64,000 bases of DNA. Source: a virus. How positions within the stretch are numbered: the first letter of the stretch is position 1; every line of letters begins with the position of its first letter. The notes under the pieces were generated by a model, which was not told the DNA's origin, did not search any database, and saw nothing but the letters and a program-made list of their open reading frames with translations. A program made the position numbers and the translations under genes. This document shows positions 6,115 to 28,610 of this stretch, in pieces. Location of the stretch: IMG/VR virus record IMGVR_UViG_2850695442_000001, one strand, 5' to 3'.

Positions 6115-7548
6115 ATGTCAGTAGAAAAGAGACACTCAGCGAGTGCAGTTTTACGCAATCAAGAACATTTTTTTCAATTGGATGAACGATTGCTTTTGGT
6201 ATTTTCACCAGAGCAGTATATGTTCATCAATCGTCTTGATTTTTGGATTCAACAGAAATTGCAAGCACAACTAGCTAACGGTGAACCTGTTCGTGGTTGG
6301 GTTAACACAGAAAATAGAATGTATATTTTTAAGACATTAAAGCCTAGCCAACATCAAACGATTCCTTCATGGTTAGAAGAATTCTACCATTTTTCAGAAT
6401 CCAGTTTTAATCGTGTAGTAAAGTCGTTAGTTAGTGCGGGAATTGTACTCAAGCACAATGATAAGAACAAGCTTGCTAGAGATAAAACACTTTGGTATTC
6501 ACTTGATTATGAAGCATTGGACCGGTATTATTCCGAAAAATTTATAGAAAGATGGCAAGAAGTGATTGTCACACGCGTGACTTGGGAATTAAAAAAGTGG
6601 CTTGACTTTCAGCCAAATGTAGAAAATTCATCTCTTACGAATGTTCAATTAAGAAAGAAACTCTTTGACTCCAACGCAAAGGTCATAGCAAAACAACGAG
6701 CAGAAGAACTCGTTTTAGAGTTTAGTGATTTCAATGAACAAGTGATAAAAGATGAAGTCACAGAGGCAGTGAATAAAATTTTAACCCAATTAGAGCAGGA
6801 ATTTCTTGGTGTTGTTCCATGCTGTCAAAATGACAACATGAGTGATACCAACGGTTCAGATGGTGAAAACGAGAAAATTAACGAAAAAAAAGCTGGGAAG
6901 CCGCATGAACAGTCATGCTGTCAAAATGATAGCATGGAAGCTGTCAAAATGGCAGCAGCATTAACCATATATAACCAACCAGGTATAACAAAGAATTACG
7001 ATACTAATCGATACGTAAATCTTGACGATTTACCGAATAACTTCATTCAAGGAGTGAATCATCTTTTTCTTACGCCTAAAACCGTTGGACAACTCTCACA
7101 TTTTGGTGAAGAAGCCAAAGCATTACAAGATATCATTTTTAGAGCCAAACTAAAAGTTGAAAAAGAATACCACGAGCAGTTAAAGCTCAGATTTCCTGAT
7201 AGAGAAAAATCACGGATTGAGGGAGAATTTTGGCAAGATGATTTAGAGAATGAAGTTCAAAAGTTAATATTTGTGATTAAAGAGAGCAGACGCAAGGAGA
7301 AACCAATTCAAAATATTGAGGCTTTCTTTACGGCGATGATGGAAAATTTTTGGCTTGCGGCGCTGGTTATTGATTTAAACTGTTCTTACAGCTGGAAAGA
7401 AAATGCAAAATATCAAGCTGAGGAAGAGGGGAAGAATTTTCTCCACGCTTATTTTAGCAAATTTGATAAGGCGGAACTTAAAGAAGAATTGTCAAACTTT
7501 AGTAAGGAAGATGCTCAAAGGCTGAGCACGAATGAAATTTGGATTTGA
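6115..7548 (+). CDS. putative phage-type replication initiator (N-terminal wHTH)
   Basis: N-terminal FINRLDFWIQ...SFNRVVKSLVSAGIV...DKTLWYSLDYEAL resembles lambda-O/replisome-organiser-type initiators. The gene carries internal palindromic repeats. Confidence 0.6.
   Translation: MSVEKRHSASAVLRNQEHFFQLDERLLLVFSPEQYMFINRLDFWIQQKLQAQLANGEPVRGWVNTENRMYIFKTLKPSQHQTIPSWLEEFYHFSESSFNRVVKSLVSAGIVLKHNDKNKLARDKTLWYSLDYEALDRYYSEKFIERWQEVIVTRVTWELKKWLDFQPNVENSSLTNVQLRKKLFDSNAKVIAKQRAEELVLEFSDFNEQVIKDEVTEAVNKILTQLEQEFLGVVPCCQNDNMSDTNGSDGENEKINEKKAGKPHEQSCCQNDSMEAVKMAAALTIYNQPGITKNYDTNRYVNLDDLPNNFIQGVNHLFLTPKTVGQLSHFGEEAKALQDIIFRAKLKVEKEYHEQLKLRFPDREKSRIEGEFWQDDLENEVQKLIFVIKESRRKEKPIQNIEAFFTAMMENFWLAALVIDLNCSYSWKENAKYQAEEEGKNFLHAYFSKFDKAELKEELSNFSKEDAQRLSTNEIWI
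6818..6956. repeat. three palindromic iteron-like repeats inside the rep gene (candidate origin)
   Basis: CATGCTGTCA-AAA-TGACAACATG (6818-6840), CATGCTGTCA-AAA-TGATAGCATG (6914-6936) and GCTGTCA-AAA-TGGCAGC (6940-6956), with an A-rich tract between copies 1 and 2. Confidence 0.65.
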
Positions 7549-7693
7549 ATAGCATACAAAATTATTTGCCCGACAGATTTTTTTCCGTGAGATAATAAGA
7601 GAGTAAAAGGTTGTTGCCTTTCCTAGCTCAAAAGGCGTGCGAGTAGGATAAGTTAATTAGGACTGACGAAAGCGCAAAAAAGAGTATTTATAT

Positions 7694-8338
7694 TTGATTA
7701 TTAAAGGTGGGGAAATGTATAAAGGAAAACAAAAAATAGAGCTCAAAACGTTGAATGAGCATTTAAACTATATCGTTGTTGGCGGCATTATTGGGCTGCT
7801 TATTTTATTAGGGATTAGTGCTGTATTTACTTTTTTGAGTATAGCGGCCTATGCGGCAAGTGTTGACCATAGTATGTCTGTCGTTGATTATCTCTATAAT
7901 TCTAATTATAATCATACCGTTCTCAAATTTATCCTATTCGTCACAGGAGGTCTGGGAATTATTTTATTAGTTGTGACGGTTATTGCTAGTTTTATTTTAC
8001 TTATGAGAGGAAAGCAATGGCTTGGAGGGACAATTCTAGGAATAATTACTGTTTCTACATTGTTTTTGTTCTTTGTTCCTGTCAGTCAAACTCAAAAAGT
8101 TTACTCCGTTAAAGGGATTCTAAAAAATGACGTATTTATTGATGGGCGAAATGACTTTACTACCCCTAGTTATAAAAGCGTGGAAGAAGCGAAGCAAAAA
8201 TTTTTTGATGAGGTTTGGTTTAGTAGCCCTCAAGAGGTTACTTTTACAACGATTGTCAGTACCAGAAAGGTTTATCAACCTTTAGTCAAGATTGAATTCC
8301 CTCAGAAACCTGCCAGTTACAATGCGGATAATGAGTAA
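7694..8338 (+). CDS. hypothetical membrane protein
   Basis: Three hydrophobic segments in the N-terminal two thirds. Confidence 0.65.
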   Translation: MIIKGGEMYKGKQKIELKTLNEHLNYIVVGGIIGLLILLGISAVFTFLSIAAYAASVDHSMSVVDYLYNSNYNHTVLKFILFVTGGLGIILLVVTVIASFILLMRGKQWLGGTILGIITVSTLFLFFVPVSQTQKVYSVKGILKNDVFIDGRNDFTTPSYKSVEEAKQKFFDEVWFSSPQEVTFTTIVSTRKVYQPLVKIEFPQKPASYNADNE

Positions 8339-11592: not shown

Positions 11593-12315
11593 ATGCGACA
11601 ACGTAATAGTAATTATGAAAGTTCTCACGAAACACAGCGTGGTGCAAGTAAGGCACGCACGGAAGCCATGACGACTTATTTTACTCAGCCTTTAATTACA
11701 GTAGATACGCCTGAAACGATTGCCAAACGTTATCTTCCCGTCTCAGTACTTTCAAGACATGTGGAAGATTTCATGCAAGAAGAACGTGGCGAGGGTTGGG
11801 TTATGATAAATGACGAATTGTCTCAAGAAGAAAACTCACTTTTGTTAATGAAGGAACAATACTATGAGAAATATTTATATTATCAGAGTTTTTATAAAAG
11901 TCATGACCGCCGACTGAGCACCATGATGCCGCTCATTCGTATGCTTAAACATAGCACTTATGAAGGTTTGGCTGCTAAACAAAAACGAAATTCTATTATT
12001 TTTGGAAGTCTGTTAATTCTAAGCGCATTGATTATTCTCGCACTTTTGCGTGTTGTATTGGCTACACCATATACTTTACTAGCAAGTATATTTGTAGGCT
12101 TATTTTTGGGTGTTTTTTTAATCTTTCAGTATGCCTACAAGCAAGATGTAGAAGATTTACTCCTGGATGCTGAGGTGCGAGAAGTTTTAAATAAAAAGTT
12201 CCAATATATTTTAGGACAAATCTTTAGAAATGCTGTAAATAATATCCAAGAATTACCAAATGCAGAAGAAAAAATGGGAAAACGGAGTATTTTCCCGACA
12301 AAATTTGGGTCATGA
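11593..12315 (+). CDS. hypothetical membrane protein
   Basis: Two TM-like segments near the C-terminus. Confidence 0.7.
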   Translation: MRQRNSNYESSHETQRGASKARTEAMTTYFTQPLITVDTPETIAKRYLPVSVLSRHVEDFMQEERGEGWVMINDELSQEENSLLLMKEQYYEKYLYYQSFYKSHDRRLSTMMPLIRMLKHSTYEGLAAKQKRNSIIFGSLLILSALIILALLRVVLATPYTLLASIFVGLFLGVFLIFQYAYKQDVEDLLLDAEVREVLNKKFQYILGQIFRNAVNNIQELPNAEEKMGKRSIFPTKFGS

Positions 12316-12401
12316 TAAAATAATAATGTGAGATTTTATATCTTTATATCTTTATATCTTTGTACAACTTTTATTCTAGGTACGTTCTCCTAGAATATCT
12401 A

Positions 12402-12474
12402 AGCAGAGTAGAGCAATGGCAGCTCATCTGGTTCATACCCAGAATTGGTGATGGTTCGAGTCCATCCTCTGCAA
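12402..12474 (+). tRNA. tRNA-Met(CAU), initiator-like
   Basis: Cloverleaf: acceptor AGCAGAG/CTCTGCA with a 1:72 mismatch, D stem GAGC/GCTC, anticodon arm TCTGG-TTCATAC-CCAGA, T arm GATGG-TTCGAGT-CCATC. CCA is not encoded. Confidence 0.9.
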
Positions 12475-12479
12475 TTATT

Positions 12480-13055
12480 GTCTCATCTCGGTTATACAGG
12501 GCTTGATAACCCTCCGAGAGCCTTTCTAAGTATGCCCTTAGTGGTGTATGAAAGTAACCTTTGTAAGTTTTAGTGGTGATAACCCCTAAGCGCGAAGATT
12601 GAAGCGTGTGAGCGTGAATTTGCTAGTAAAAGCTAGTGTGAAATGGAAGGTGTGGCAATGTTTTATCACTTTAGTGCATTCTTCTTTTCGGTAGATAGAA
12701 TTATACGGTGGTTGTTGCGAAAACCACAAGCAGCCGTATAGCTCAGTGAGGCTTGCTCTAGCTGGCAAGGAAACCTGAGTATTGCTAAGCAATCTGCTGT
12801 GTCGTGAAACTGAGAAATCAGGGTATAAGAGAAGCGAGAAGTTCAAGTAGCCCAAGACACATACTCATAATAAAAACATTTACTAAATTATATGTTGAAA
12901 TCTGTATCGGGTGAAAGTTGGGAGATTTTGTTTCTCGCCCAATCATTAAAAGCAATAGGAGCTAAGAGAGTTGCTACTCTTAGTAGAGCCTGTTGGGATT
13001 GTCGCATAATTAAGAGGAGTAAAACATTGTTTGGAGAAAAACCGGGACAATATTT
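12480..13055 (+). ncRNA. large ornate structured RNA candidate (ROOL-like; GOLLD is the alternative)
   Basis: ~575-nt GC-richer segment between tRNAs with only weak RBS-less ORFs and many helices: CTCGG/CCGAG, TATACGG/CCGTATA, TGGTT/AACCA, CTCAG/CTGAG, CTTGC/GCAAG, TTGGG/CCCAA, CTAAGAG/CTCTTAG, ATTGTC/GACAAT. Size and tRNA context fit ROOL. Confidence 0.55.
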
Positions 13056-13056
13056 T

Positions 13057-13145
13057 GGAGAAATAGAATGTAATTTGGTATCAGGCTAGACTTGAAATCT
13101 AGCAATCGCAAATGCGGTGTGTCGGTTCAAATCCGACTTTCTCCT
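13057..13145 (+). tRNA. tRNA-Ser(UGA)
   Basis: GGAGAAA/TTTCTCC acceptor, CTAGA-CTTGAAA-TCTAG anticodon arm, long variable arm, GTCGG-TTCAAAT-CCGAC. Confidence 0.9.
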
Positions 13146-13222
13146 TTGCCATTGTGGCGCATTTACCTAGTTTTTGTTGTTATTGTTTTGGTAGGAATTT
13201 TGCTGAAAATCCTACCTCTCAT

Positions 13223-13295
13223 AGAGAAGTAGCTCAGCGGGGAGAGCAGTGGTTTTACACTCCATATGTCAGCGGTTCAAATCCGTTCTTCTCTA
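13223..13295 (+). tRNA. tRNA-Val(UAC)
   Basis: AGAGAAG/CTTCTCT acceptor, GCTC/GAGC D stem, anticodon loop TTTACAC (stem has a T.T mismatch), T loop TTCAAAT. Confidence 0.85.
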
Positions 13296-13389
13296 TAAGC
13301 GTCAAATCTATGCTAGTAGATTTGGTGGTATTCTAGCAGATGCAATTTAAGAGCGTTCGCTTCCTCTTTGACAAATCGGAAAGACGAAA

Positions 13390-13461
13390 GTGCTTGTAGC
13401 TCAATGGTAGAGTGTTGGCTTACAGAGCCAAAGGTTGTAGGTTCAAGTCCTACCAAGCATG
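13390..13461 (+). tRNA. tRNA with ACA anticodon (nominally Cys; Arg(ACG)-like body)
   Basis: GTGCTTG/CAAGCAT acceptor, TTGGC-TTACAGA-GCCAA anticodon arm, GTAGG-TTCAAGT-CCTAC T arm, G73. Confidence 0.85.
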
Positions 13462-13496
13462 TAGTTATCATGATGATTTTTGATAGCATAATAACT

Positions 13497-13570
13497 CTGA
13501 ATATGGCTCAGTTTGGTAGAGCACCTGTTTTGGGAACAGGAGAGCGCAGGTTCAAATCCTGCTATTCAGA
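13497..13570 (+). tRNA. tRNA-Pro(UGG)
   Basis: CTGAATA/TATTCAG acceptor, CCTGT-TTTGGGA-ACAGG anticodon arm, GCAGG-TTCAAAT-CCTGC. Confidence 0.92.
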
Positions 13571-13580
13571 TTTTACAAAT

Positions 13581-14825: not shown

Positions 14826-16224
14826 TATGGAACAACACCGAAAAACTCGGTATTTTAATGCCGAGATGAAAGGTGCTTTACTGTTAATTTACCCGACGAC
14901 TTTTTTCCCATGAGATAATAAGAGAGGAAGTTGATACTTAACGAAAGGAAGAATAATAAATGGTTATACGAAAAATCGCTCAAAAAATACCTTTCAAACC
15001 AACAAAGAAGCAAATTCAGTTCTTTGCGGATTGTTTTGGTGCGAGAAGATTTGTGTATAACAGCCAAGTTGCTGTATTCAATACTTACTTTGAAGAAAAT
15101 AAGAAGTTAGTCTATCCTAAAATCACAGACCTTAAACATGAGAATGAGTGGTTAAGAGGAAGTGTTGTGCCTGCTCACAGTCTCTCTAATGCACTCATGG
15201 ATTTTGGTAAAGCTCGTTCTGCCTACTTCAAAAAGAAAAAGTATTCAAAAAATCGTCCTCGATTTCAAAGCCGTCACGATTACATTCAATCGTTCAGAAA
15301 TGGAATGCCTCTAAAAACAATTCGTGAAAACGGACGCTACCAACTTTCAAAGAAGCTAGGATATATTAAAATCCGTAAACGTGACAACCTCCGCTATCCT
15401 ATTGAACAGATGACCCAATGGACAGTCAAGCGTGAGGGCGACAAATACTATATCGTCTTCTTGTTCACGGTTGAAGTTGAAACGCAATCTGAAACCACTG
15501 GTGCAGTTGGTATTGACCTTGGCATTAAAGACTTCGCTATCACATCGGACGGCGAAAAAATAGATTTGCCTGAACAAATCGGAAAACTGGAAGCCAAAGT
15601 GATAAAAGAACAGCGTAAACTTTCACGAAAACAAAAAGGCAAAGGCAAGCAGTCGAACAACTTCTATAAGCAAAAAGCGAAGTTACAAAAGGCTCATGCT
15701 AAAGTTCGTCATGTTCGTGAGAACTTCCATCATCATGTGTCAAAACAGCTCGTTGAAGAAAACCAATTCATTGCTTTGGAAACATTGAGACCTTCTAATA
15801 TGATAAAGAACCACAAGCTGGCTCGTTCGATTGCACGAGCAGGCTGGCGACAATTCACCAATCAGTTGGAATATAAAGCTCAATGGTATGGACGTACCGT
15901 ACAACACGTGGGGCAATACTATGCAAGTTCAAAGACTTGTGGAAATTGTGGCATCATCTATCACGGTCTTAAACTTTCTGAAAGAGAGTGGACGTGTTCA
16001 GAGTGCGGCACCCATCATGACAGAGACCTTAACGCAAGCCAAAACATTCTCAAAGAAGCACAACGATTAGCTTCTTAAAATAAATACTTGTAATTGTTAA
16101 AGAACCGACCGACAATCGGGGATAGCTCGCTCAATATAAGAACCTCTGGCACACGGAAACAAATCCGGAGTCAAGTCTGCTTAGTTCGCGAGAATCTCGG
16201 TACTTTAGTACCGAGAATGTTCAA
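14826..16224 (+). mobile_element. non-autonomous IS200/IS605-family element (tnpB only)
   Basis: Left-end hairpin CTCGGTA-TTTTAA-TGCCGAG (14846-14865); right-end hairpin CTCGGTAC-TTTA-GTACCGAG followed by TTCAA (16220-16224). No tnpA. The left boundary is approximate. Confidence 0.8.
14960..16078 (+). CDS. tnpB: RNA-guided endonuclease TnpB
   Basis: Ruv[12 protein letters not shown], RuvC-II IALETL, Zn finger SSKTCGNCG...CSECG, Ruv[15 protein letters not shown]. The D-E-D triad is intact. Confidence 0.95.
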
Positions 16225-16248: not shown

Positions 16249-16473
16249 TTGGAAATAAAAAGAGTAAGAAATATTATGGGATATTCGCAAGCGAGTAAAA
16301 TGCGATGGTTTCCTTTTGAAAAATTTGAGCCACAATACGCTCAAGGATATATTCGATTAGAAGCTGATTCAAATGAAGTTGGATTTAGAGTTGTAGATAC
16401 TTATGGACGTAGAGATGAAGAACTTGAAAAAGAGGGATTTGTCTTTGAAAAAGGGAGCAGCCAAAGCACGTGA
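16249..16473 (+). CDS. hypothetical protein (start uncertain)
   Basis: 74-aa ORF. The best RBS precedes an out-of-frame ATG at 16242. Confidence 0.4.
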   Translation: MEIKRVRNIMGYSQASKMRWFPFEKFEPQYAQGYIRLEADSNEVGFRVVDTYGRRDEELEKEGFVFEKGSSQST

Positions 16474-16559
16474 GAGCGTGCTTTTTATAATGGTTTAAAT
16501 AAAAATAATTATTTTTTAGCTGCTAAGAAAAGTGAAAAAATATATAAAAAGCAGAAGAA

Positions 16560-16597
16560 GGACTTGTTTTTGGTCAAAAAATTGTGCGTGAGATAAT
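16560..16597 (+). promoter_or_regulatory. GGACTT-N26-GATAAT motif, copy 2
   Basis: aaGGACTTgttt...tgaGATAAT, followed by ~850 nt with no ORF. Confidence 0.75.
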
Positions 16598-16603
16598 AAA
16601 CAG

Positions 16604-17445
16604 GTAAACATTTTATATACTATTCTATTTGACCTTAGGTCAGCCAGAACTCCGAAGCTTCGCTTTGGTGTATTGAGTTTCTTGTATGGGATATTTTTAT
16701 TGAAGGTTCACTCGTTGTGATATGCTTTGTCGATTTTATCGCCATTCTATCATTTCTTGATGTGTTCCCGCTCGGTTCAAATTTCTTCATTCAACACTTA
16801 ATTATCCATTGCAGCTTTTGTTAGAGGATAGGCAAATGAGAACGTGTGTTCTTATGAGGTAATATCGTGAGATATAGGTTTCTTGTGAAACTGTAAATTT
16901 TGATGCTATGTCATTTTTTACACCCAAGCACCAATAGCCGAAATTGAATTTAATGGGTTTGATTTTCTCGGTCAAACATCATGTTTCAATTTTAAAATGA
17001 ACAGCAATGATTTCCAAGTCTGGAAGTTGAGTGCATAAGAGAACTTGTACTGTTTTGTGAAAACAAGCAAAATCTGACTGTTCATCATTCAAATGTTCAA
17101 GTTAAAAACGTCCGATGTGGAATGGTTTAACCTGATTCATGATTAAGACAGCGTAACGTCCGGTGTGGAATTGACGTGTCACCCTAAGAAGTGGCTTGCA
17201 AGTGGTTCTTGCGTCTTAACAAGTTGAATGTAATTAAAATTTCTGTTGAGCTAGTATTCAGAAGAGAACAGATTTTATCTGTCTGATAATGAGCGAAAGT
17301 GTAGTGTACAAGAGTACATCCAGTTTTACAAGAGGCAATAGAACAAAATGTTCGTTAGTGCGTGGCATTTGTTTGTAGTTGTCCAAAGCATTTATTGTTT
17401 TTAAACACATAAGGGTCAACGTACCATACGTTTTTGCCCTTATGG
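16604..17445 (+). ncRNA. candidate large structured non-coding RNA (or structured ssDNA element)
   Basis: No ORF of 60 aa or more on either strand, and consecutive nested multi-branch helices (see findings). Confidence 0.45.
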
Positions 17446-17456
17446 GCTAGAAAGGC

Positions 17457-17630
17457 ATGAAAATGCAAAAAATTAGTAAAAAATACATTATTTTTCTTCA
17501 TTCTTCATCAGGTTATTCAATAGGACAAATTGAAGGAGACAACAAGCGAAAACTTGCGCTTGAAGCTCTGGATATTATGGATTGGGCTTCATTTAATTAT
17601 TGCTACCGACGTGTTAAACGGGTGGAATAA
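17457..17630 (+). CDS. small hypothetical protein (57 aa)
   Basis: RBS AGAAAGG; MKMQKISKKYIIFLHSSSGYSIGQIEGDNKRKLALEALDIMDWASFNYCYRRVKRVE. Confidence 0.5.
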   Translation: MKMQKISKKYIIFLHSSSGYSIGQIEGDNKRKLALEALDIMDWASFNYCYRRVKRVE

Positions 17631-17837
17631 TAAGAAAAGCTAATTGAATCGGTTTGATAAATGAATTGATAAGTAGAAAAATAATACTAACACAAAAACG
17701 CACTAGACGTTACTCTATTGAGTAAATAATTTGTGCGTTTTTCGTTCAGTAGAATTGAGAACAAACAACGCACAAAGTCTGTATGTTCAGGCTAATATTG
17801 TGCGTTTTTATATTTTATGCACAAAGGGGCACATATC

Positions 17838-18311
17838 ATGAATAACACACAACTCATCGGACGCACAACCAAAGTAATTGAACTTCAAACATCACCAGCT
17901 GGAAAAAGTTACGCACGTTTTACTATTGCAGTCAATCGTCGTTTCAAAAATGCCAATGGGGAGCGTGAGGCTGACTTCATTCCTTGTATCATTTTTGGAC
18001 AATCTGCGGAAATTTTTTCCAAATATGTTCAAAAAGGAGATTTAGTAGGAATTGATGGTGAATTGCGGACGAGTAATTACACTGATAAAGATGGCAATAA
18101 GCGCTTCAATATGGAAGTGATTGTCACAGCCTTTGATTTTTTGCCTTCGCATAATCAAAATGCTCAAGGAAATCAAAGTACACAACAGGGACAACAAAAT
18201 CCTTCCGCTTATCAAGCACCACAAGCAAATAGTGGTCAAGCTTCTACGTATGATGACCCATTCTCAGGTGGTACTCCAATGGAAATCAATCCAGAAGATT
18301 TGCCATTCTAA
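17838..18311 (+). CDS. ssb: single-stranded DNA-binding protein
   Basis: MNNTQLIGRTTK...ARFTIAVNRRFKNANGEREADFIPC...GELRTSNY OB fold with acidic tail INPEDLPF. Confidence 0.97.
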   Translation: MNNTQLIGRTTKVIELQTSPAGKSYARFTIAVNRRFKNANGEREADFIPCIIFGQSAEIFSKYVQKGDLVGIDGELRTSNYTDKDGNKRFNMEVIVTAFDFLPSHNQNAQGNQSTQQGQQNPSAYQAPQANSGQASTYDDPFSGGTPMEINPEDLPF

Positions 18312-18447
18312 AAACGATAAGTACGGTGTGGAACGGGGGAAAGAGAGAAACACGTAAAGTGTGGAAGGAATGAAACCCTGAGGTCAGTGCCTGTCAAGCT
18401 TGCTTGATATGGTAACACTTCACTTTACCTATCGTTATAATAAAAAA

Positions 18448-18757
18448 CAAAATAAATAATGGTATTAGGAAACTAATACCTTGTGGTAGCCACGTAAATC
18501 CTTTTACGGGGTAAAAAGAAAGGAGGTATCTTTTATGACCTCACTTCTTTCTCGCATGGTATTAGTTGGGATGTTCAAATTTGTACTCACGGGTACGAAG
18601 GCGAAAGAAAAACCGCCGCCGTAAGGCGAAACGGTTTCTCTTGTGGTTAGTTAGACTACTGATTCAACTATTGGTCCAAGGACTGATAAGCAAATTGGTA
18701 AACTATCTGACCCCACTTCTCTAATATTATTATACCATGCGAGACCCGCAGACGCAA
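18448..18757. other. type I toxin-antitoxin-like locus
   Basis: Plus strand: TATAAT at 18436, GGTATTAG-GAAA-CTAATACC hairpin, sequestered SD, small ORFs 18535-18624 and 18581-18724. Minus strand: TTGCGT-17-TATAAT promoter with extended TG (18757-18729) and a terminator with U-tract at 18640-18604. Confidence 0.65.
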
Positions 18758-18858
18758 GTTTGCGTGGCTTTCAGAGGGTATTGTTTACTTTTCCAAGAAA
18801 TAATCAGTTCAAAATAATGAAGAATTTGGACCTAATTAAAAAGAGAGTAGTAAATAAT

Positions 18859-19020
18859 ATGGAAAACATAGAAGCACTTTGTAACCATTTAGAGAATATG
18901 ACAGTGACGGAAAGAAAAAAACTGTTTGAAAGACTTTCTCTTTATAAAAAAATTATTTTTCTAATTTGTTTGGGATTAATAATCCTTTTAATGAAAAGGA
19001 ATAAAGAAGTTACAAAATAA
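18859..19020 (+). CDS. small membrane peptide
   Basis: C-terminal hydrophobic stretch KKIIFLICLGLIILLMKR. Confidence 0.5.
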   Translation: MENIEALCNHLENMTVTERKKLFERLSLYKKIIFLICLGLIILLMKRNKEVTK

Positions 19021-19037
19021 TAACTATAATAAAATTG

Positions 19038-19100
19038 CACCTAAACCCAATCGGGTATGGATAATTCCAACCCGAAAGGGTTGAGGAAGTAAATAAAATG
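19038..19100 (+). repeat. three-hairpin leader, copy 1
   Basis: CACCTAAACCCAATCGGGTATGGATAATTCCAACCCGAAAGGGTTGAGGAAGTAAATAAAATG, nearly identical to 20106-20168. Confidence 0.85.
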
Positions 19101-20093
19101 ACAAAAGAACTACTTGACCTTGCAAACACAGATAATTTGACAGCAAGCATTGTACGTCAATATATCACGGGTGGGGCACAAGCTTCCCCTGAAGAATTAG
19201 CATATCTGGTTACTATTGCAAAAAACATTAAAGCAAGTCCGTTTCTTAAAGAAATTTACTTTATTAAGTATGATGAGAAAACACCTGCTCAAATTGTAGT
19301 ATCTCGTGATTTTTATAGAAAACGAGCACAAATGAATCCTCTATTTAAGGGGATTGAATCTGGTGTTATTGTGACAGACCTTGATGGAGAGCTTGCTTAT
19401 CGTGATGGTGCGGTTAAATTACCAACAGACACCTTATTAGGCGGCTGGGCTAAAGTCTATGTCAAAGATTATGTTTCTCCTATCAAATCCTCTGTTATGT
19501 ATGATGAATATGTACAGATGAAGGATGTTTGGGAAAATAATCGAAAGACAGGAGAGAAAGAGCCAAAAGCATTATGGGCATCTAAACCTTTAACAATGAT
19601 TACTAAAGTTGCAGAGTCACAAGCTTTACGCTCAGCTTTTCCATCAGAATTTTCTGGTTCGTATGCCGAGGAAGAGATTCCAGAAGCTTCTGAACTGATT
19701 AATAAAGATAGAAAAGATGTCACGCCAGCACAAGGACAAATAGGAAATCCTGTTAATCAACAAGGGATGTATAAACAAACCTCAAGACAGGAAGTATTGG
19801 AAAAACAAAAAATGGAGAGCATTCAGAAAAAAGGGGAACGTCAACAAGCGCCAACTAATCAGTACGCACAACAAGGACTTTCCACTCAAAACGACCGCTA
19901 TCCGGATGTTCGTTCCTCTCAACAAGGGAACGGACAAGCACAACAGTCCCAGCAACCACAATATACTGGAACACAAGTAAGTAACGAACAACAGGCTCAA
20001 AATAATGATGAATTTAACCCTAATCGTTTTGCTCGTGACCCTCAACAAAGTTCACAAAAAAATGAAACGTTCGTTAATGAACTTCAATTTTAG
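19098..20093 (+). CDS. bet: phage recombination protein Bet/RecT-family single-strand annealing protein
   Basis: ASPEEL...KASPFLKEIYFIKY...QIVVSRDFYRKRA...LLGGWAKVY...W...PLTMITKVAESQALRSAFP, with a Q-rich tail. Confidence 0.9.
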   Translation: MTKELLDLANTDNLTASIVRQYITGGAQASPEELAYLVTIAKNIKASPFLKEIYFIKYDEKTPAQIVVSRDFYRKRAQMNPLFKGIESGVIVTDLDGELAYRDGAVKLPTDTLLGGWAKVYVKDYVSPIKSSVMYDEYVQMKDVWENNRKTGEKEPKALWASKPLTMITKVAESQALRSAFPSEFSGSYAEEEIPEASELINKDRKDVTPAQGQIGNPVNQQGMYKQTSRQEVLEKQKMESIQKKGERQQAPTNQYAQQGLSTQNDRYPDVRSSQQGNGQAQQSQQPQYTGTQVSNEQQAQNNDEFNPNRFARDPQQSSQKNETFVNELQF

Positions 20094-20105
20094 TTTATAT
20101 TAGTA

Positions 20106-20168
20106 CACCTAAACCCAATCGGGCATGGATAATTCCACCCCGAAAGGGTTGAAGAGGTAAATAAAATG
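20106..20168 (+). repeat. three-hairpin leader, copy 2
   Basis: CACCTAAACCCAATCGGGCATGGATAATTCCACCCCGAAAGGGTTGAAGAGGTAAATAAAATG. Confidence 0.85.
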
Positions 20169-20714
20169 AACGAAATTACACTTACTGGAGAATATAAAGC
20201 AATTTATCCAGAGAATAAAGAATATCAAAGTAGAGAGAGTTCTTTCTATTGGCATCTTACCAAAGAGGATAAAGAATTTCTTGATGTACTAGAGAATATT
20301 TTTAAACGCAAGGAAATAATTGAAAAATTTAAATCTGCTTTTGGAGATAATTTCCACTTTTATCATTCAGAATATAGCTTTACATATGATACCAATGAGG
20401 TAAATATCACATGCTTTTATAATGGGATGCGCGAACTTTCTTTACAAGAGAAGAAAGAAAAAGAAATTGCTGACGATAAGCAGATGGGGTCTTCTGAAAA
20501 GCTTGTACTGGCTCAAAATTTAACTGTACCCGCTTATTCAAAGAAAAGAGAACTTTTGTTTCGCGGAGAATCATTCAAAAAAAGAATTTGGGTAAATGAT
20601 TGGATATTAAAATTTGATGTTACAGATAACTTGATTTTAAAAGAGACCGGATTAGTTAATTCAAAAACGGTTCCTGATATGATGGAGTATTTATCTTCTA
20701 AATTTCCCAACTAA
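20166..20714 (+). CDS. hypothetical protein
   Basis: 182-aa ORF behind the repeated leader. Confidence 0.7.
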   Translation: MNEITLTGEYKAIYPENKEYQSRESSFYWHLTKEDKEFLDVLENIFKRKEIIEKFKSAFGDNFHFYHSEYSFTYDTNEVNITCFYNGMRELSLQEKKEKEIADDKQMGSSEKLVLAQNLTVPAYSKKRELLFRGESFKKRIWVNDWILKFDVTDNLILKETGLVNSKTVPDMMEYLSSKFPN

Positions 20715-20861
20715 CTATATAAATTGAACTCTTAATTGAGTAGCAATCACTTAGTATGATTCATAATGCCGCTAAAATCGGGCATTAACTACCGCAAGGG
20801 ATTTCATCACTCCCTTGCGGAATGGTGTGTTCCTACATTTATTAAAAATAAAGGAGACATT

Positions 20862-21356
20862 ATGACTAACACTATTAAAACAAATCAAAATCTCAAAGAA
20901 ACTTTTGCTGCGATTGCGAATAACGACTTAGACCGCATGGTTGCAGTTTATGAAAATGAACAAGTCAATCAAGCAGTACAAGCTTATCAAGCAAAAGTTC
21001 ATGCAATTTCTAGCCAACTGGCTCATGTTGCTGAACTTTGTACAGGGTTGAAACAACGCTACTTTGGTTTAAAGGAATCTACGTTCACTCGCGCCTCTTA
21101 TATGTCCGCAAAAGCTTCATTAAAGGTTTGTGCGAACGTGAAGAGAACTATCAAAAATACTCAGTTATTTTTAGTAGAAAGACGCTTTGAATTTGGATTT
21201 GAAGAAACAAAAGCAATGTTGAAACTTTTTGTACCATATCTTGAAGGACTTAAAATTTTAATTAAAGGCTATGTCCAAATGGTACAGAAGTATGAATTTG
21301 AACAAACACAAGCAGACTTGTTTTATTTACAAGCAAAGAATGTAGCACTTACTTAA
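20862..21356 (+). CDS. hypothetical protein
   Basis: RBS AAGGAG before ATG 20862. Confidence 0.7.
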   Translation: MTNTIKTNQNLKETFAAIANNDLDRMVAVYENEQVNQAVQAYQAKVHAISSQLAHVAELCTGLKQRYFGLKESTFTRASYMSAKASLKVCANVKRTIKNTQLFLVERRFEFGFEETKAMLKLFVPYLEGLKILIKGYVQMVQKYEFEQTQADLFYLQAKNVALT

Positions 21357-21445
21357 AAGTTTGTGATGCATAACACTCAGGAGGGTGCAATATTCCCTTC
21401 TGGGGATACTGTATCTCTCCATTTTTTGAAAGGAAATATTAAAAA

Positions 21446-21682
21446 ATGGCAGTAGAAATATACACAGCAGATGCAATCAACTTACTTTACTTGTATGAAA
21501 AAACAGGAGAATATGGCGATACCACGATTACCTTTGCGGAAATCAAAGATTACGTGGAGTATATCGCTAAAGTTCGTAAGATTGAAATAAAATCAGGAAA
21601 AGAAACAGAAGTTGATGTTGAACGTCCGCTCTCGATTCTATCCAGCACTTTCTCGAAAAATATAAAGCGAATAGACCTATAG
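21446..21682 (+). CDS. hypothetical protein
   Basis: RBS GAAAGGA; directly precedes the PARP-like gene. Confidence 0.6.
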   Translation: MAVEIYTADAINLLYLYEKTGEYGDTTITFAEIKDYVEYIAKVRKIEIKSGKETEVDVERPLSILSSTFSKNIKRIDL

Positions 21683-21705
21683 AGGTAGCACAGGCTAATA
21701 AAGGT

Positions 21706-22377
21706 GTGGAAAAATCTAAACTTAGTATGACTATAGAAAATTTTTATATAGCACTTAACAAGATTTTGAAGCATGAAAAATTAGATGTTGATGAAGCGTT
21801 ATTCTTTTTAGAAGAGACAAATGATGTTTTGAATAAAGAAAATATCTGGCAGTTTTTGGGACTCTCTGAAACGATGCTTGAAGAGACGGAACTTCCGTTT
21901 AATATGACTGATTCTATTTTTAAAGCACATAACCGCATTGGAAAAGTCTTTGCAGTTGAAAATGTACAAGAACTTTCACGATACAAACACGTTTGTTATG
22001 GTGCTCATGGAACCAAAAATGATAATGTTTTATCTATTTTATCCAATGGTTTTGTTTCATCTGACAAAGTTAAAGCCGTGGCATTTTCAGGTCAAATGTT
22101 CGGAGAAGGAGTCTATATGTGTCGCCTTTCTCAATTTTCTAAAGTTTTGAACTACATTTCTAGTCCCAGTACCTCAACTCCAAGTTATGCCTTTTTAATG
22201 AAAATTGGATATAACAAAAAAATTGATGTGACGTCTAGCAGAAGCGAAACTATACAACCTGGGGAATTAGTTCATGCTCATGATATTGGAATGTATTCAA
22301 GAGATGAATATGTTGTGGCGGATAGTTCTCAAATTGCTATTACGCATATTGTTGAAATTTTTGAGAAAAACAACTAA
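21706..22377 (+). CDS. PARP-fold (H-Y-E clade) ADP-ribosyltransferase
   Basis: AHGTKNDNVLSILSNGF, GQMFGEGVY, SKVLNY and DEYVV...QI align with PARP1 WHGS..GILSQGL, GYMFGKGIY, SKSANY and NEYIV. Confidence 0.85.
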   Translation: MEKSKLSMTIENFYIALNKILKHEKLDVDEALFFLEETNDVLNKENIWQFLGLSETMLEETELPFNMTDSIFKAHNRIGKVFAVENVQELSRYKHVCYGAHGTKNDNVLSILSNGFVSSDKVKAVAFSGQMFGEGVYMCRLSQFSKVLNYISSPSTSTPSYAFLMKIGYNKKIDVTSSRSETIQPGELVHAHDIGMYSRDEYVVADSSQIAITHIVEIFEKNN

Positions 22378-22495
22378 AAATATCACTTATCACTTGATAA
22401 GCCCAAGAGTTTTTAACTCTTTTTTATCATGGGATAAGACTTCTGCTTTAGCAGTTGGGGCTTTTATAATGGCATCTGCCAAAGAAAGGAGCCTC

Positions 22496-23473
22496 ATGGC
22501 TAAACAGATTATTTATCCCACTAACGAAAATGAAATTCTCACTCAAAAAGTGAACTACACCAAAACAAAAGATGGTATCACAAACTGGAACTTTTGGACA
22601 GGTAATTCTTCTGATAGATTTGGGTTTTATCCCTCTTTAGTAAATCCTATTACTAAAATGGAAGCATTGCTTGATTATCGAAAGAAAATGCGTGTAGCTT
22701 ATGAGAGAAGACTTACTGAACAACAAAAGAATGTTATCAATCCGATTGATAATCAACAACAACTGAAGCAATGGTTAGAAAAAGAGGGTGTAATAAAAGC
22801 AGCATCATACTTTGAATTTAAAGATTCATCAAGTAATTGGGTAGATTTGAAAGCTATTGCTCCTTATTATTATTCAGAAGCTGTTCTGTTTTTTGAAAAT
22901 CTTTTTTTACCTCAATTAGATGCTTTAAATACATTATTTACCTTTACTGGAAGTTGGGAAGATGATTTGAAAAGATATGCTTTTGAGATGGAAAAGACGC
23001 GTATTGAAAATTCAATGTTGCATCTGAATTTAAAAAACAAACATTCAGATACTGCTTTTCTAAGTCACTCTATTATTAGAAAGGTAACGGCTGAAATTAA
23101 TAAGGCTTATTATTCAACCATTGAAAATTTTAATGGTAATTCTAGGACAAAGCTAAACTTAGAAAATAGCACTTTGACAAACTTTGAAGGCTCAAATAAT
23201 TTTACTTTGGTGAATTCTAAGTGGTGTGATACGGCATTTCAGCGTCACACTGGTGGTGAAAATAACGCTAACATCTTCTTGGAAAATGTATCGCTTATCA
23301 ACTGTACGGTTAAATCAAATAATAAAATTAAATTCCGAGGAGAGGACGAGAATAATGTTCTCACCTTGAAAAATATAACAATTTTAGATTTTAGAGAAAT
23401 TTCATATACTACAGATGAAGAAACAACATTGACTGCCGATATGGTAAAGAATAATAAAATAATCCTTTACTAA
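22496..23473 (+). CDS. hypothetical protein with Asn-rich, beta-solenoid-like C-terminus
   Basis: RBS AAAGGAG before ATG 22496; low-complexity N/L/S/T periodicity in the C-terminal third. Confidence 0.65.
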   Translation: MAKQIIYPTNENEILTQKVNYTKTKDGITNWNFWTGNSSDRFGFYPSLVNPITKMEALLDYRKKMRVAYERRLTEQQKNVINPIDNQQQLKQWLEKEGVIKAASYFEFKDSSSNWVDLKAIAPYYYSEAVLFFENLFLPQLDALNTLFTFTGSWEDDLKRYAFEMEKTRIENSMLHLNLKNKHSDTAFLSHSIIRKVTAEINKAYYSTIENFNGNSRTKLNLENSTLTNFEGSNNFTLVNSKWCDTAFQRHTGGENNANIFLENVSLINCTVKSNNKIKFRGEDENNVLTLKNITILDFREISYTTDEETTLTADMVKNNKIILY

Positions 23474-23577
23474 TTTTACTTTTTAACACCCAAAGGGGGA
23501 TAATCGTTCCCTTTGGGAAGTTATCTCCTTTTTACTTTAAAAGCTTGCGAGCAAAAATAAAATGGAGGAATACTGAA

Positions 23578-24972
23578 ATGGCAAAAAATAAAAAGATAGT
23601 AAACGGACAGCTCTCGTTCTTTGACTTATTGGCAGGGTATGAACGTGAAGCAGTTGAAACACAAATCACTGTTCCCGAAATTAAAGGAATTACTGGAGAA
23701 CTTTTTGATTGGCAAAAAGCACCCACTGATGCCTTAAAAGCTATTTTACTAGATAAGGAAAATGAAGATTATAAAAATCAACGTGCTTTCTTCATATTTG
23801 GTGAAGTTGGTGTCGGGAAAACTTATATCTCATGTTATATAGCAAAAGATTGGCAAGGAGAAGTAAAAATTATTGCGCCAATAGGAACACACAAAAATTG
23901 GAAATCTTGTTTAAAACTTTTTGGCGTTGAAAACGCTGAAATAGTTGAGACTATAGATTTTGATATTTTCACAACGATTGACCCAGAAAATTTATTAATT
24001 ATTGTGGATGAAATTCATAATAATGTAAAAGATACAGAGTGGCTAAATTTGTATTCGTGCTTTGTAAAAGCAGGGGTAACCTTATTAGGATTGACAGGCA
24101 CACCTTTTGAAAAGCAAATTAATGTATTTGCGAAAGCAGCATTAATCCTTTCAAATTTGGACGTCCCTCGATTAAAAGCCGGACAAGTGAAAAAATATTT
24201 ATCACAAGTCGTTCCTTATCATGGTATATCCCTCTCTAAACCTGCTGAAAATATCCAGCCTCATTACATTACAAAGACGAAAGAAATTGCGATTGAAATG
24301 AGTTCGGAACAACGTGCGTTCTATGATTTTATGGTTGCACGTACTGGTAAATTGGATATTTCAAACTTTCAACTCGCAAAAGCGACTGATAATTTTGTGG
24401 ATTTTGGAGATACCGAAACATTCTTTACTAAGCGAGATACAGGACGCTATTTTGTAGGGTATAAAGCAGAAGATAAATGCGAAAATCAAAAATTGGTAGC
24501 ATTGAGAAAAGAAACTTTCACTTTATCTGGTAAGACTTTAGTCTATGTCAACACGAAAAAAGCCTTAGAATTCCTAGAAAAAGAAGGATTTGATACTTTA
24601 ACGTTTGAGGATAAAGAAAAAACAGAAGAACTCATCCATCAACACTATGAAACCAAGGATATTCTTGTTGTTTGCACAACAGAGGTCAAAGAAGGGATAA
24701 ATCTTGATGAAATAACCAACATTATTTGGTATCAAACTCCAAAAAATGCAGTAGATTTCACTCAATGCAACGGACGGATGCTTCGTGGTGTTCCAGAGAA
24801 AGATACTGTTAAAAATGTTATTCAGATTTTTTCTCATAACACGATTCAAGAAAAAGTGGCTAATCAATTAGCAGCTGTGGTTACAGGCAATAATATATCT
24901 ATTGCTTCTGAATCTTCAGAAACATGGGAAACGCGTCTGGAAGCTTTCTTGAGAAATGTACAAAGTATGTAA
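23578..24972 (+). CDS. superfamily 2 helicase-like protein
   Basis: Walker A GEVGVGKT, Walker B IVDEIH, motif III LTGT, KEGINL, motif VI TQCNGRMLR. Confidence 0.85.
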   Translation: MAKNKKIVNGQLSFFDLLAGYEREAVETQITVPEIKGITGELFDWQKAPTDALKAILLDKENEDYKNQRAFFIFGEVGVGKTYISCYIAKDWQGEVKIIAPIGTHKNWKSCLKLFGVENAEIVETIDFDIFTTIDPENLLIIVDEIHNNVKDTEWLNLYSCFVKAGVTLLGLTGTPFEKQINVFAKAALILSNLDVPRLKAGQVKKYLSQVVPYHGISLSKPAENIQPHYITKTKEIAIEMSSEQRAFYDFMVARTGKLDISNFQLAKATDNFVDFGDTETFFTKRDTGRYFVGYKAEDKCENQKLVALRKETFTLSGKTLVYVNTKKALEFLEKEGFDTLTFEDKEKTEELIHQHYETKDILVVCTTEVKEGINLDEITNIIWYQTPKNAVDFTQCNGRMLRGVPEKDTVKNVIQIFSHNTIQEKVANQLAAVVTGNNISIASESSETWETRLEAFLRNVQSM

Positions 24973-25063
24973 TAACACTAACCATAAAAGGAAAACAGCT
25001 TCTTTGGTGGTGTTTCTCTTTTATAAATTATTAAACTAACAATTATAAGGACATAAAAATAAA

Positions 25064-25477
25064 ATGGGATATACAAATTATTTTACAACAACTAAAAAAG
25101 ACTTTAATTCTGAATTTATTGCTTTAGCACGAAAGATTGTTGAACTATCTGACGTTTCTACTAAAGGCTGGGATGGAACGAAGAAGGCTGAGTTCAATCT
25201 TAAAACAATTTCCTTAAATGGGGATGCAAGCAATCAAGAAGATTTCGAGACGTTCGAGTTATCTAGGTTTGCTTATGATTTTCGAACAGATGACTACTAT
25301 TTACCGTCTGAACTGAAGTTTGCATTTACAAAAACTGAAAGATTACCTTACAGTTTTAATGGTAAAGTCACAGATAGCGAATTCATTGCAGGAGCAAATT
25401 TATTCAATAATGCTCTGGACTATTTTAACATTGAAAAACTATCTATCGAAGAATGTGAAAACTTTGTAAAGCAGTAG
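25064..25477 (+). CDS. conserved hypothetical phage/plasmid protein
   Basis: MGYTNYF...FETF...FTKTERLPY pattern; family not named with confidence. Confidence 0.6.
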   Translation: MGYTNYFTTTKKDFNSEFIALARKIVELSDVSTKGWDGTKKAEFNLKTISLNGDASNQEDFETFELSRFAYDFRTDDYYLPSELKFAFTKTERLPYSFNGKVTDSEFIAGANLFNNALDYFNIEKLSIEECENFVKQ

Positions 25478-25717
25478 GAAGAAAGTACAATCATGTTTAA
25501 TCAATATACAACACAAAAAGGAATAACTGTTACTGAATTAGTTTCAGGGTCACTCTGGATTGTTAATAATGGAAAATTACAATTTAAGTTTACTAATATC
25601 ATTGATTTTGTTCGGTATATGACAAAAGTGAAATGAATTTAAATTGGTAATCCCTCATGGGACTCACAGCGAGTGGCTGATTGTCCCGAGGGGGCGTTAT
25701 CTCGAAAGGAGAGGCAA

Positions 25718-25945
25718 ATGGTTACTGTTTATTCAAAAAACAACTGTATGCAATGCAGAATGGTTAAAAAATTTTTAACTGAACATGATGTTACTTTCAA
25801 AGAAATCAACGTAGATGAGAATCCTGAGTTTATTGCTCATTTAAAAGATGACCTTAATTTCATGGCAACCCCTGTTGTTGAAACTGAAAACATCGCTTTT
25901 TATGGTTTTGCGCCTGATAAGCTGAAAGCATTAGCAAACAATTAA
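25718..25945 (+). CDS. nrdH: glutaredoxin-like NrdH-redoxin
   Basis: MVTVYSKNNCMQC (CxxC)...TPVV...GFAPDKL; RBS AAAGGAG. Confidence 0.92.
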   Translation: MVTVYSKNNCMQCRMVKKFLTEHDVTFKEINVDENPEFIAHLKDDLNFMATPVVETENIAFYGFAPDKLKALANN

Positions 25946-26067
25946 CAATTAAATATTGCTTCATAACGAAGCCGCCTTGCACAGGGTGTCATTGAACGTG
26001 CGTGCTAAAATATTAGCTCGTAAGTCCTGATTCCCGTGAGGAACAGGCTGAGTTTAGGAGAAATGTA

Positions 26068-27066
26068 ATGAATGAATTGTCAGTTAAATTTATTCCCGCA
26101 AGTATTGAACTTGTTCAACAAAAAGAATTTGAGCAACAAATTATTGATATTGCTAATAAATATTCTAATTTGGTAGTGACTCAAGAAACATTGAAAGAAT
26201 CTCGCGAAACACGGGCAGAATTGAACGGTGTGATAAAAGACTTAGAGTCTAAAAGAAAACAGGTCAAAGCTCATATCAATGAGCCTTACGAGGCTTTCGC
26301 AGGATGGCTTAAACAGGCAACACTTTCTTTAACAGATACAATTTCAAAGATTGATGCAGGAATTAAAGAATGCGAACGGAATACTCGTGAGCTTCGATTA
26401 CAAATTCTTACAGCAAATCTTGAAAAAATTTGTGAAGATAAAGAATTGCAAATTAATGGGAAAGTTATGGATTCTCGCATCTTTGATGCAGAGCTATCAA
26501 AAATGGCTTTAGCTGTTAATTTTACAAAAGATATGAACTTGACTAAAGTGGCACGCGAAAAGCTTCAAGAATTAGTAGAAGTTGAATTTAATGCTAAAAA
26601 AGAATTAGCTTTGGCGACAGATTCAATCAATACAGTGGCTTTTAGCGTAAATCTTGAACCGCGTCCGTATCTTCAACTCTTTGTGCAGGGGAAACCTATT
26701 GCGGAAGTTTTGGTAATGATACAAAAGGATGCACAGGCAAAAGATGAACGTAGAAGGCTTGCGGAGCAAATACAGATTGAAAAAGCTGAAAAAGCCAAGC
26801 AAGCTGAGTTAGCAAAGCAAGAAGCGACACGGCAAGCAAAAGTGATGTCTTCTGCCGAGCCACCACATCAAAAGGTTATTGACCCATATCCAGCTCAACT
26901 CATTTTTTCGATTGACTTTGAAACTGTCGCACAAAAAGACTTCTTCAAATCAGTTATGGAAGATAATGGGTTTGAGTATGTGGTGAAATCTTTTGAATCG
27001 CGTAATCCGGAATACCTTAAAGTACTTGAACAGAAAAAAGCTCAGGAAAATAATTCTGTTGCATAA
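26068..27066 (+). CDS. DUF1351-like phage protein
   Basis: KYSNLVVT...RAELN...LESKRKQVK...EPYEAF coiled-coil pattern, typical of Bet-associated phage modules. Confidence 0.75.
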   Translation: MNELSVKFIPASIELVQQKEFEQQIIDIANKYSNLVVTQETLKESRETRAELNGVIKDLESKRKQVKAHINEPYEAFAGWLKQATLSLTDTISKIDAGIKECERNTRELRLQILTANLEKICEDKELQINGKVMDSRIFDAELSKMALAVNFTKDMNLTKVAREKLQELVEVEFNAKKELALATDSINTVAFSVNLEPRPYLQLFVQGKPIAEVLVMIQKDAQAKDERRRLAEQIQIEKAEKAKQAELAKQEATRQAKVMSSAEPPHQKVIDPYPAQLIFSIDFETVAQKDFFKSVMEDNGFEYVVKSFESRNPEYLKVLEQKKAQENNSVA

Positions 27067-27151
27067 TCTAATACACTGACCCAAAGGGCTGAAACATTAC
27101 TCTTTGGAGTGGTGTCTCTCTTTATTAATTTTAAAGGTAAAGGAGAATAAA

Positions 27152-28299: not shown

Positions 28300-28413
28300 A
28301 ACTATAAGATTACATCTCACCCTAGGGGACATTTTGACACCTTAGAGGTAGAGAAGTCAACTAGGATTTAAACACGCGCAGATGCGCTCTTAATTAAGCC
28401 TAGGAGGCACAAC

Positions 28414-28590: not shown

Positions 28591-28610
28591 GAAGGAGAGA
28601 AAAACTAAAA

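Follow-up and report, generated by a model that had tools for sequence, protein, structure and literature searches.

A candidate large structured RNA, most likely of a new family, at the head of the early genes of a plasmid-like element from a probable Lactococcus-like host

Structured RNAs longer than 500 nucleotides (nt) are rare in bacteria, and each new class, such as OLE, GOLLD, ROOL or raiA, has opened a line of work. Several large RNA classes turned out to be unexpected RNA-only assemblies (PMC12286853). In the plasmids of the pLS20 family, the EGeRS1 regions are multi-hairpin non-coding stretches of 420-750 bp that lie directly before the ribosome-binding sites of establishment operons; they are orientation dependent, and whether they work as RNA or as single-stranded DNA (ssDNA) is undecided (PMC8708921). 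The conAn2 RNA follows conAn1 at the head of the operon of a type IV secretion system (T4SS) and acts on many internal terminators (PMC8191782). Here, we describe a locus in a 64,000-nt stretch of DNA (IMG/VR record IMGVR_UViG_2850695442_000001, hereafter the window), which corresponds to C1:187379-251378 on the chromosome contig of a complete 2.76-Mb genome. The gene content of the window suggests a large plasmid-like or conjugative element integrated in the chromosome. Between a promoter and a small open reading frame (ORF) followed by ssb, this element carries about 0.85 kb that very probably encode a real, conserved structured RNA. It is most likely a new family, and it probably controls, or is released from, the early-gene transcript of the element.

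EGeRS1 is the nearest analogue in position and character, as both are long multi-hairpin non-coding regions abutting the ribosome-binding site of an establishment-type operon. The copies of EGeRS1 are 62-95% similar, whereas a blastn comparison of our region with pLS20 (L034) returned only chance words, and our search model, R1, scored at most 10.8 bits (E 0.6) on the EGeRS1 copies of pLS20. EGeRS1 is moreover GC-rich (51% against 38%), is found five times on pLS20 and comes without a promoter, whereas the structured RNA has a GC fraction of 0.361 against 0.362 for the window, is single-copy and stands directly behind a conserved extended -10 promoter. These comparisons argue that it is not a member of the EGeRS1 family, though similarly placed. 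ROOL (RF03087) and GOLLD are likewise ornate multi-domain RNAs of about 0.6-0.8 kb from mobile elements of Lactobacillales; unlike them, the RNA described here matches no model at E ≤ 10, is not set among tRNAs, has no terminator of its own and runs into a ribosome-binding site. Like conAn2, it is non-coding, measures several hundred nt and lies close to where a long operon begins in a Gram-positive conjugative element, but it stands directly behind the promoter, it heads an ssb-recT operon and internal terminators are not enriched; upstream of it lie a terminator-like hairpin, a 74-aa ORF and TnpB, and no conAn1 gene. The Frpo and ssi sites of F and ColIb-P9 also lie upstream of ssb and leading-region genes and need intrastrand pairing. 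Frpo is one long imperfect hairpin of about 300 nt that rebuilds a promoter on the template strand, whereas here about 850 nt form a branched structure on the sense strand with an ordinary promoter ahead. By the tests run, the RNA does not appear to be of the ROOL, GOLLD, EGeRS1, conAn2 or Frpo type, conAn2 being set aside by context and Frpo by shape and strand.

The initial annotation had singled out a gene-free region at 16604-17445, whose coordinates and content we confirm. No ORF of at least 60 aa with a start codon exists there on either strand, where the longest ones (57, 53 and 51 aa) occupy different minus-strand frames, nor is there one in 16604-17456. Each plus-strand frame contains 14-20 stops in this region and 12-24 across every homologue. 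Substitutions between the window and the homologous contig L029, counted by position modulo 3, are 45/46/50 in the RNA (no periodicity) versus 61/44/88 in ssb. A protein-coding gene or pseudogene was rejected, since no homologue has an open frame and no codon-position bias is seen.

The region matches no Rfam 15 family, among them ROOL, GOLLD, OLE, HEARO, the group I and II introns and T-box, whether judged by gathering scores or, under lax filters, at E ≤ 10, and the homologous contigs L029, L021 and L015 gave only tRNAs. Blastn against the INPHARED phages and the PLSDB plasmids returned nothing, and across 61 relatives and 401 family genomes a DNA search turned up nothing beyond chance matches of 20-40 nt. 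An invariant 33-mer, allowed up to three mismatches in 401 sampled genomes of the order, and model R1, run on 151 relatives, both found the own genome only; the model detected a single copy in the window and genome-wide, and the DNA search of the own genome also hit one place. A first metagenome pattern scan was empty and a second, whose pattern included a position variable in the L015 group, gave only a chance 20-mer (L014), while three pattern scans of viral contigs (IMG/VR) were empty. No paper describing this RNA was found in a literature search.

Homologues were all reached through neighbouring genes. The best relative of ssb (51% identity) lies on Logan contig L015, where 1.1 kb without a called gene precede it and PARP-like and helicase genes follow it, as in the window. 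Relatives of the helicase led to L019/L029 (an 86.9-kb JGI contig) and to L020-L023. Other routes were less productive: the small ORF was an orphan in a 90% cluster search, recT yielded nothing but 53% relatives from prophages that do not carry the RNA, no copy of it accompanies the phage-type ssb relatives L016 and L018, and the helicase relatives L028, L030 and L031 have other gene contexts. The known distribution amounts to one genome and seven metagenome contigs (eight sequences) in three clades, namely the window, L029 and the L015 group, whose five contigs are 90-95% alike; the RNA was not found in about 1000 sampled genomes, in PLSDB, in INPHARED or via the IMG/VR patterns. All clades keep the order of a terminator or spacer, a -10 box, about 730-850 nt of gene-free RNA, the small ORF and ssb. 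In addition, two termite-gut DNA runs yielded short contigs that are 83-94% identical to 16836-16946 and 16998-17250 only, with the flanking genes unmatched and with the variant letters of L029; these matches were a first hint of constraint on the centre of the gene-free gap.

Blastn aligned window positions 16586-17606 with L029 positions 7341-8333 at 72%, the match starting inside the -10 box and ending at the end of the small ORF. The L015 group matches in two blocks, 16830-16945 at 79% and 17087-17229 at 78%. In this comparison the blocks (77-79%) exceed ssb (70%), the PARP region (70%) and the helicase (66%), and the core is at least as conserved as the flanking protein genes. The six-sequence alignment is a mosaic typical of a structured RNA: core blocks A and B are gap-free and 73-87% identical, the flanks are 47-71% identical, and in the middle part between the blocks entire hairpins are present or absent by lineage. 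The most conserved parts are central, away from the ribosome-binding site. The features of the locus are as follows.

16463..16486, + strand: terminator-like hairpin and T5 (stem 16463-70/16477-84, then a T run), read from the sequence; it would end the upstream unit (TnpB and the 74-aa ORF)
16560..16597, + strand: element-type promoter, with upstream box GGACTTGTTT (16560-69) and extended -10 TGAGATAAT (16589-97)
16604..17449, + strand: whole candidate structured RNA, about 850 nt (about 830 nt in L029, about 735 nt in L015)
16629..16643, + strand: 5' hairpin UUGACC/GGUCAG with loop UUA, about 25 nt past the predicted start, 100% paired in all sequences
16644..16828, + strand: variable 5' region, 47-71% identity between clades, hairpins similarly placed, alignment poor
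16829..16939, + strand: core block A, gap-free in six sequences, 76-82% between clades
16940..16993, + strand: helix 16940-47/16986-93, 98% paired, one compensatory pair
16998..17084, + strand: domain with closing helix 16998-17004/17078-84, containing a lineage-specific insert and the two hairpins 17010-15/17022-27 and 17032-36/17043-47
17084..17232, + strand: core block B, 149 nt, 8 helices, closed by 17086-92/17224-30, gap-free, 73-87%
17107-23 and 17155-71, + strand: two 17-nt direct repeats, with covarying hairpins 17111-13/17119-21 and 17159-62/17166-69
17173..17206, + strand: invariant 34-mer, identical in all three clades
17233..17449, + strand: variable 3' domain, 53-60% identity, with terminal hairpin 17409-43
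17450..17630, + strand: ribosome-binding site at 17450-55 (GAAAGG), then the small ORF, which begins at 17463 or 17457, ends at 17630 and follows the RNA in all clades

The consensus fold was obtained with RNAalifold on the six-sequence alignment, and the controls were run on the five distinct sequences, either by shuffling or by moving the 3' partners by 1-3 columns (slid control). The fold comprises 181 pairs, 45 of them with compensatory double changes, and 93.8% of the cells are paired versus 36-44% after sliding. Slid controls gave 7-14 double-change pairs and shuffles 23.6 ± 3.0, none of 1000 reaching 45. Covariation among homologues, which the initial annotation had proposed as a check, is therefore present and well above the controls. 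Block B provides the best test of covariation because its alignment, being gap-free, leaves no alignment freedom. Assessed through model R1 and this alignment, 97.6% of its cells are paired and 12 of 48 pairs are compensatory, against 5.8 ± 1.6 in shuffles (0/500 reach 12) and 0-3 after sliding. Its 10-bp helix 17097-17106/17126-35 has compensatory changes in 7 of 10 pairs, and when sequences of the three clades are folded individually, block B takes the same architecture in each. Within the invariant 34-mer lie the 5' strand of hairpin 17178-82/17191-95 and its loop CCUAAGAA, as well as the 5' strand and loop of hairpin 17198-202/17208-12.

Block A folds into a hairpin (16836-43/16848-55) followed by a junction that is closed by 16858-60/16922-24 and bears three hairpins, one of which has an invariant GUGA tetraloop (stem 16862-66/16871-75, loop 16867-70). 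Five of its 32 pairs are compensatory, among them pairs of the junction-closing helix and of the GNRA-capped (GUGA) stem. Outside the two blocks, the closing helix 16998-17004/17078-84 is 100% paired with 3/7 pairs compensatory, the inner hairpin within 16940..16993 occurs in the window and L029 and is absent from the L015 group, and the 5' hairpin has a varying loop and one pair changed from C-G to U-G. The 3' domain contains the conserved islands UCCAG..UACAAGAGGC (17320-38) and GUCCAA (17383-88), and it ends in a conserved GGGCUAGAA directly before the ribosome-binding site. The motifs UUCUUA (16849-54) and UAAGAA (17185-90), a candidate long-range pair, are complementary in all sequences; both are invariant, so they carry no covariation information. 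Two candidate motifs were discarded: CGTGAGATA at 16866-74, resembling a -10 box, is explained by the GUGA-capped hairpin, and CCUAAG in the invariant loop was dropped as half of an 11-nt tetraloop receptor, its partner UAUGG not being conserved.

Most of the helices that had been picked out by eye in the initial annotation recur in the six-sequence consensus (16998-17004/17078-17084, 17086-17092/17224-17230, 17140-17149/17213-17221, 17198-17202/17208-17212, 17010-17015/17022-27, 16940-47/16986-93 and the terminal hairpin 17411-14/17439-42). The one seen between 16659-70 and 16930-43 was recovered only in the shifted register 16670-78/16929-37, and those listed within 17240-17360 fall in the lineage-variable part. 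The 17-nt tandem repeat that the annotation also listed is real (17107-17123 and 17155-17171), each copy being a small covarying hairpin. Folding against shuffled sequence is modest for the single sequence (z -2.7 on the plus and -2.1 on the minus strand), whereas the comparative evidence is strong; from the own sequence alone, the case for a structured RNA is weak. The suggestion of an undescribed large RNA draws its support from the lack of an Rfam match, the three-clade homologues, the covariation and the strand asymmetry. As to the latter, the consensus energy is -117.4 kcal/mol on the plus strand versus -84.1 on the minus strand, and G-U outnumber A-C cells on the plus-strand structure by 98:12 overall, by 14:5 in the pairs predicted on both strands and by 17:3 in block B. 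Both the energy and the G-U excess favour the sense (transcribed) strand. The promoter at the start, the ribosome-binding site at the end, the GNRA loop and the short, many-branched helices point to RNA. Conservation, non-coding nature, base-paired architecture and strand preference are shown by these data.

The promoter copy reported at 16560-16597 is indeed present (GGACTTGTTT-N-TGAGATAAT) and is one of about 13 in the window. The -10 box reads TGAGATACT in L029 and TGAGATAAT in the L015 group, and transcription is predicted to start near 16603-16605. The hairpin at 16463..16486 was not reported by a simple terminator scan. The promoter-like repeat family, (A/C)GGACTT..N..TGAGATAAT, has about 13 sites, including 10505, 16560, 30451, 34234, 34867, 42970, 46116, 50868, 51505, 54352 and 59221; the distance from its conserved upstream box to the -10 exceeds that of a usual -35, a hint that the element encodes a regulator or that recognition follows an unusual mode. 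Since the next copy downstream is at 30451, about 14 kb are served by one promoter of the element type. Other operons with the same type of promoter have leaders of tens to about 400 nt, which makes a leader of 860 nt exceptional.

Because no conserved terminator lies between the RNA and the small ORF, nor a recognisable processing site, the RNA would most simply be the 5' leader of a small ORF-ssb-recT transcript. Its last helices end 4-8 nt ahead of the ribosome-binding site, which in full-leader folds is paired in the window and the L015 group (unpaired probability about 0-0.3) via different partner sequences. The small ORF shares 58% identity with its counterpart in L029 and 26% with that of the L015 group, and its substitutions (11/12/20 by codon position) show a third-position excess. 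It has no Pfam family; its small fold is confidently predicted as beta-beta-alpha-alpha-beta (predicted local distance difference test 82), and the model has no PDB match and atlas scores at chance level. A profile search found a distant homologue, P0133 (E 1.2e-4), of the small ORF (17463-17630) at 392-550 of L036, a contig in which TGA encodes W, packed tightly between genes and with no RNA upstream; as this relative occurs without the RNA, no pairing of the RNA with the small ORF protein can be claimed.

We propose that transcription runs rightward from the extended -10 promoter of the element at 16589-97 and that the RNA would form the 5' part of a transcript that runs on through the small ORF, ssb, recT and some 12 kb of genes of the early or establishment type. 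The two core domains (16829-16939 and 17084-17232) would be multi-helix junctions with invariant loops, joined and flanked by variable helices and lineage-specific hairpins. The last helices would pair with the ribosome-binding site, so that the RNA fold gates the expression of the small ORF and ssb, in response to a protein, a ligand or a state met on entering a new cell, and the conserved core loops could be the sensing or binding surface. We assign this explanation as a whole, a cis-acting leader of the small ORF-ssb-recT early operon, a probability of roughly 45%. That the RNA is made as a leader from the promoter at 16589-97 is likely, and a cis-regulatory role is put forward tentatively. 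Transcription from the promoter, co-transcription with ssb and the regulatory role are inferred.

Several points weigh against this explanation. The start, end and expression of the RNA are predictions from the sequence, and the data point to no particular ligand, protein partner or alternative fold. To our knowledge, no cis-regulatory leader of such a size is among the known cases. In the L029 fold the ribosome-binding site is less paired, and its pairing has no covariation support. The route through ssb and helicase genes makes the constant order of RNA, small ORF and ssb partly an ascertainment effect. The eight sequences represent only three effective lineages, RNAalifold favours covarying pairs, which inflates the counts given that the structure was predicted from the alignment on which it was tested, and the slid and shuffle controls remove the effect of relatedness only in part. 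The domain-level z-scores, from -1.7 to -3.1, do not separate the strands.

A possible, though less probable, alternative is that the RNA is processed off the 5' end of the operon and acts in trans as an independent large ornate RNA akin to ROOL, GOLLD or OLE, a machine, scaffold or decoy, for instance against host defence at entry. It would then be a new giant ornate class of Lactococcus-type plasmid-like or conjugative elements, the first product of the early unit, acting in its own right as an assembly or decoy that protects or establishes the incoming element, and a single mobile element would deploy two unrelated large structured RNAs. The size, multi-domain fold, invariant loops, variable peripheral hairpins and GNRA loop do resemble those of ornate RNAs, the element already makes ROOL from a similar promoter, the genes downstream are of early or anti-defence type, and conservation peaks centrally rather than beside the ribosome-binding site. 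Against this, there is no terminator or processing site before the small ORF, the last helix abuts the ribosome-binding site in all clades, and neither ROOL, GOLLD, OLE nor any other Rfam model matches. A processive-antitermination RNA of the conAn2, put or EAR class, which would modify RNA polymerase to read through the hairpins of the 13-kb array, appears improbable; the initial annotation had proposed one like conAn2 of pLS20. The RNA heads a long, single-promoter, multi-gene array in a conjugative-type element, and dissimilarity to conAn2 is not decisive since conAn2 regions (260-600 bp) are poorly conserved (PMC8191782). Yet the RNA exceeds that size range and the defining context is missing: no conAn1-type gene lies ahead, the operon is not a T4SS operon, and the many downstream hairpin/T-tract spacers once invoked are not borne out, with 12 terminator-like sites on both strands of 17400-31000 versus 6.6 ± 2.5 expected from shuffling and only 4, weak, on the plus strand.

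Still less probable is a function as ssDNA on the transferred strand, be it a Frpo-type promoter, an ssi/sso priming site or an EGeRS1-like DNA element; the initial annotation had considered folded ssDNA of the Frpo/ssi type. The region lies just upstream of ssb in a leading-region-like array, as Frpo and ssi do in F and IncI plasmids, and the transferred strand of pLS20 is the sense strand (PMC8708921). Covariation by itself cannot separate RNA from DNA, and neither a relaxase gene (families PF03389, PF03432 and PF02486 were searched, with none near the island) nor an oriT that would fix the transfer polarity was located. What disfavours ssDNA is that the helices are of at most 10 bp and many-branched, with no long hairpin rebuilding -35 and -10 boxes, that the pairing fits the sense strand, not the template strand on which a Frpo promoter serving these genes has to form, that conservation is bounded by a normal double-strand promoter and a ribosome-binding site, and that the region is 3-5 times larger than sso or ssi sites. 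Origins of the ssoA type span about 150-300 nt, with an RSB and a CS-6 loop (TAGCGT), and belong to rolling-circle plasmids. Here TAGCGT occurs only in the L015 group, the others having CAGCGT or CAACGT inside a stem, and the element is large, with actin-like partition and initiator-like genes, so this type of origin was rejected. Lastly, a decayed gene or spacer whose structure arose by chance is largely refuted and very improbable. The modest single-sequence z-scores and the small family would fit it, but the core blocks are gap-free and at least as conserved as neighbouring genes, compensatory changes stand far above controls, and there is neither an open frame in any homologue nor codon periodicity.

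The cis-acting leader, our preferred explanation, would serve an element whose host is inferred to be a Lactococcus-like bacterium: the nearest named relatives of its proteins are from Lactococcus or Pseudolactococcus, and the largest sampled genus of the family comprised 345 species. Nearly all genes of the window are on the plus strand. Those that define the element are listed below.

17817..18311, + strand: ssb (Pfam SSB 1.3e-30), first recognisable gene of the downstream array
19098-20093: recT (Pfam RecT 2.8e-33)
Further genes: actin-like partition protein, initiator-like gene, C5 methylase, helicase, DUF1351, topoisomerase, NlpC/P60 hydrolase, VirB4-like ATPase, intein-bearing SNF2 helicase, TnpB

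Several other features of this element deserve mention. A ROOL RNA (12463-13064, 171.8 bits) lies about 3.5 kb upstream of the structured RNA, within an array of five tRNAs (Met, Ser, Val, Cys-ACA and Pro; region 12284-13571) that is preceded by a weaker copy of the element promoter at 12284-12334; L029 has four tRNAs in the matching place (89% identity over 13224-13476), without ROOL. The TnpB gene (14960-16078, region 14826-16078) is of the IS605 OrfB / Cas12f-like TNB type, and 47084-47322 repeats its left end together with 122 nt from its interior (85-89%), in what looks like an internally deleted second copy. Downstream of ssb, a PARP-like gene and an SF2 helicase, together with a third gene of about 300-400 aa (21706-24972), form a trio kept in all related elements (L015, L020-L023, L029). 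In L028 and L030 the trio is flanked by Abi_2, WYL and GIY-YIG genes, in apparent chromosomal defence islands. A hairpin-rich leader of about 73 nt is duplicated before recT (19029-19101) and before the next gene (20097-20169) and is kept at 78-91% in L015 (6704-6792, 7432-7477) and L029 (19536-19608); it is a second candidate RNA motif of the element family. At 37975-39213, a 412-aa ORF matches both the rve integrase core and, in full, the IstB_IS21 ATPase and may be an IS21 istA/istB pair joined by fusion or frameshift, and at 59293-62706 a 1137-aa SNF2/ResIII helicase is split by an intein with Hint and LAGLIDADG domains.

Taken together, the candidate combines comparative support with a defined genetic position, as the first product of the early unit before ssb, and with a host genome that permits deletion. 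As a cis-acting sensor it would exceed every leader known to us in size; if it acts in trans, it would be a new member of the ornate RNAs with a clearer functional context than most. As the RNA parallels the unrelated EGeRS1 of Bacillus plasmids, our analysis suggests that Gram-positive conjugative elements may in general have converged on long folded non-coding regions before their establishment genes.

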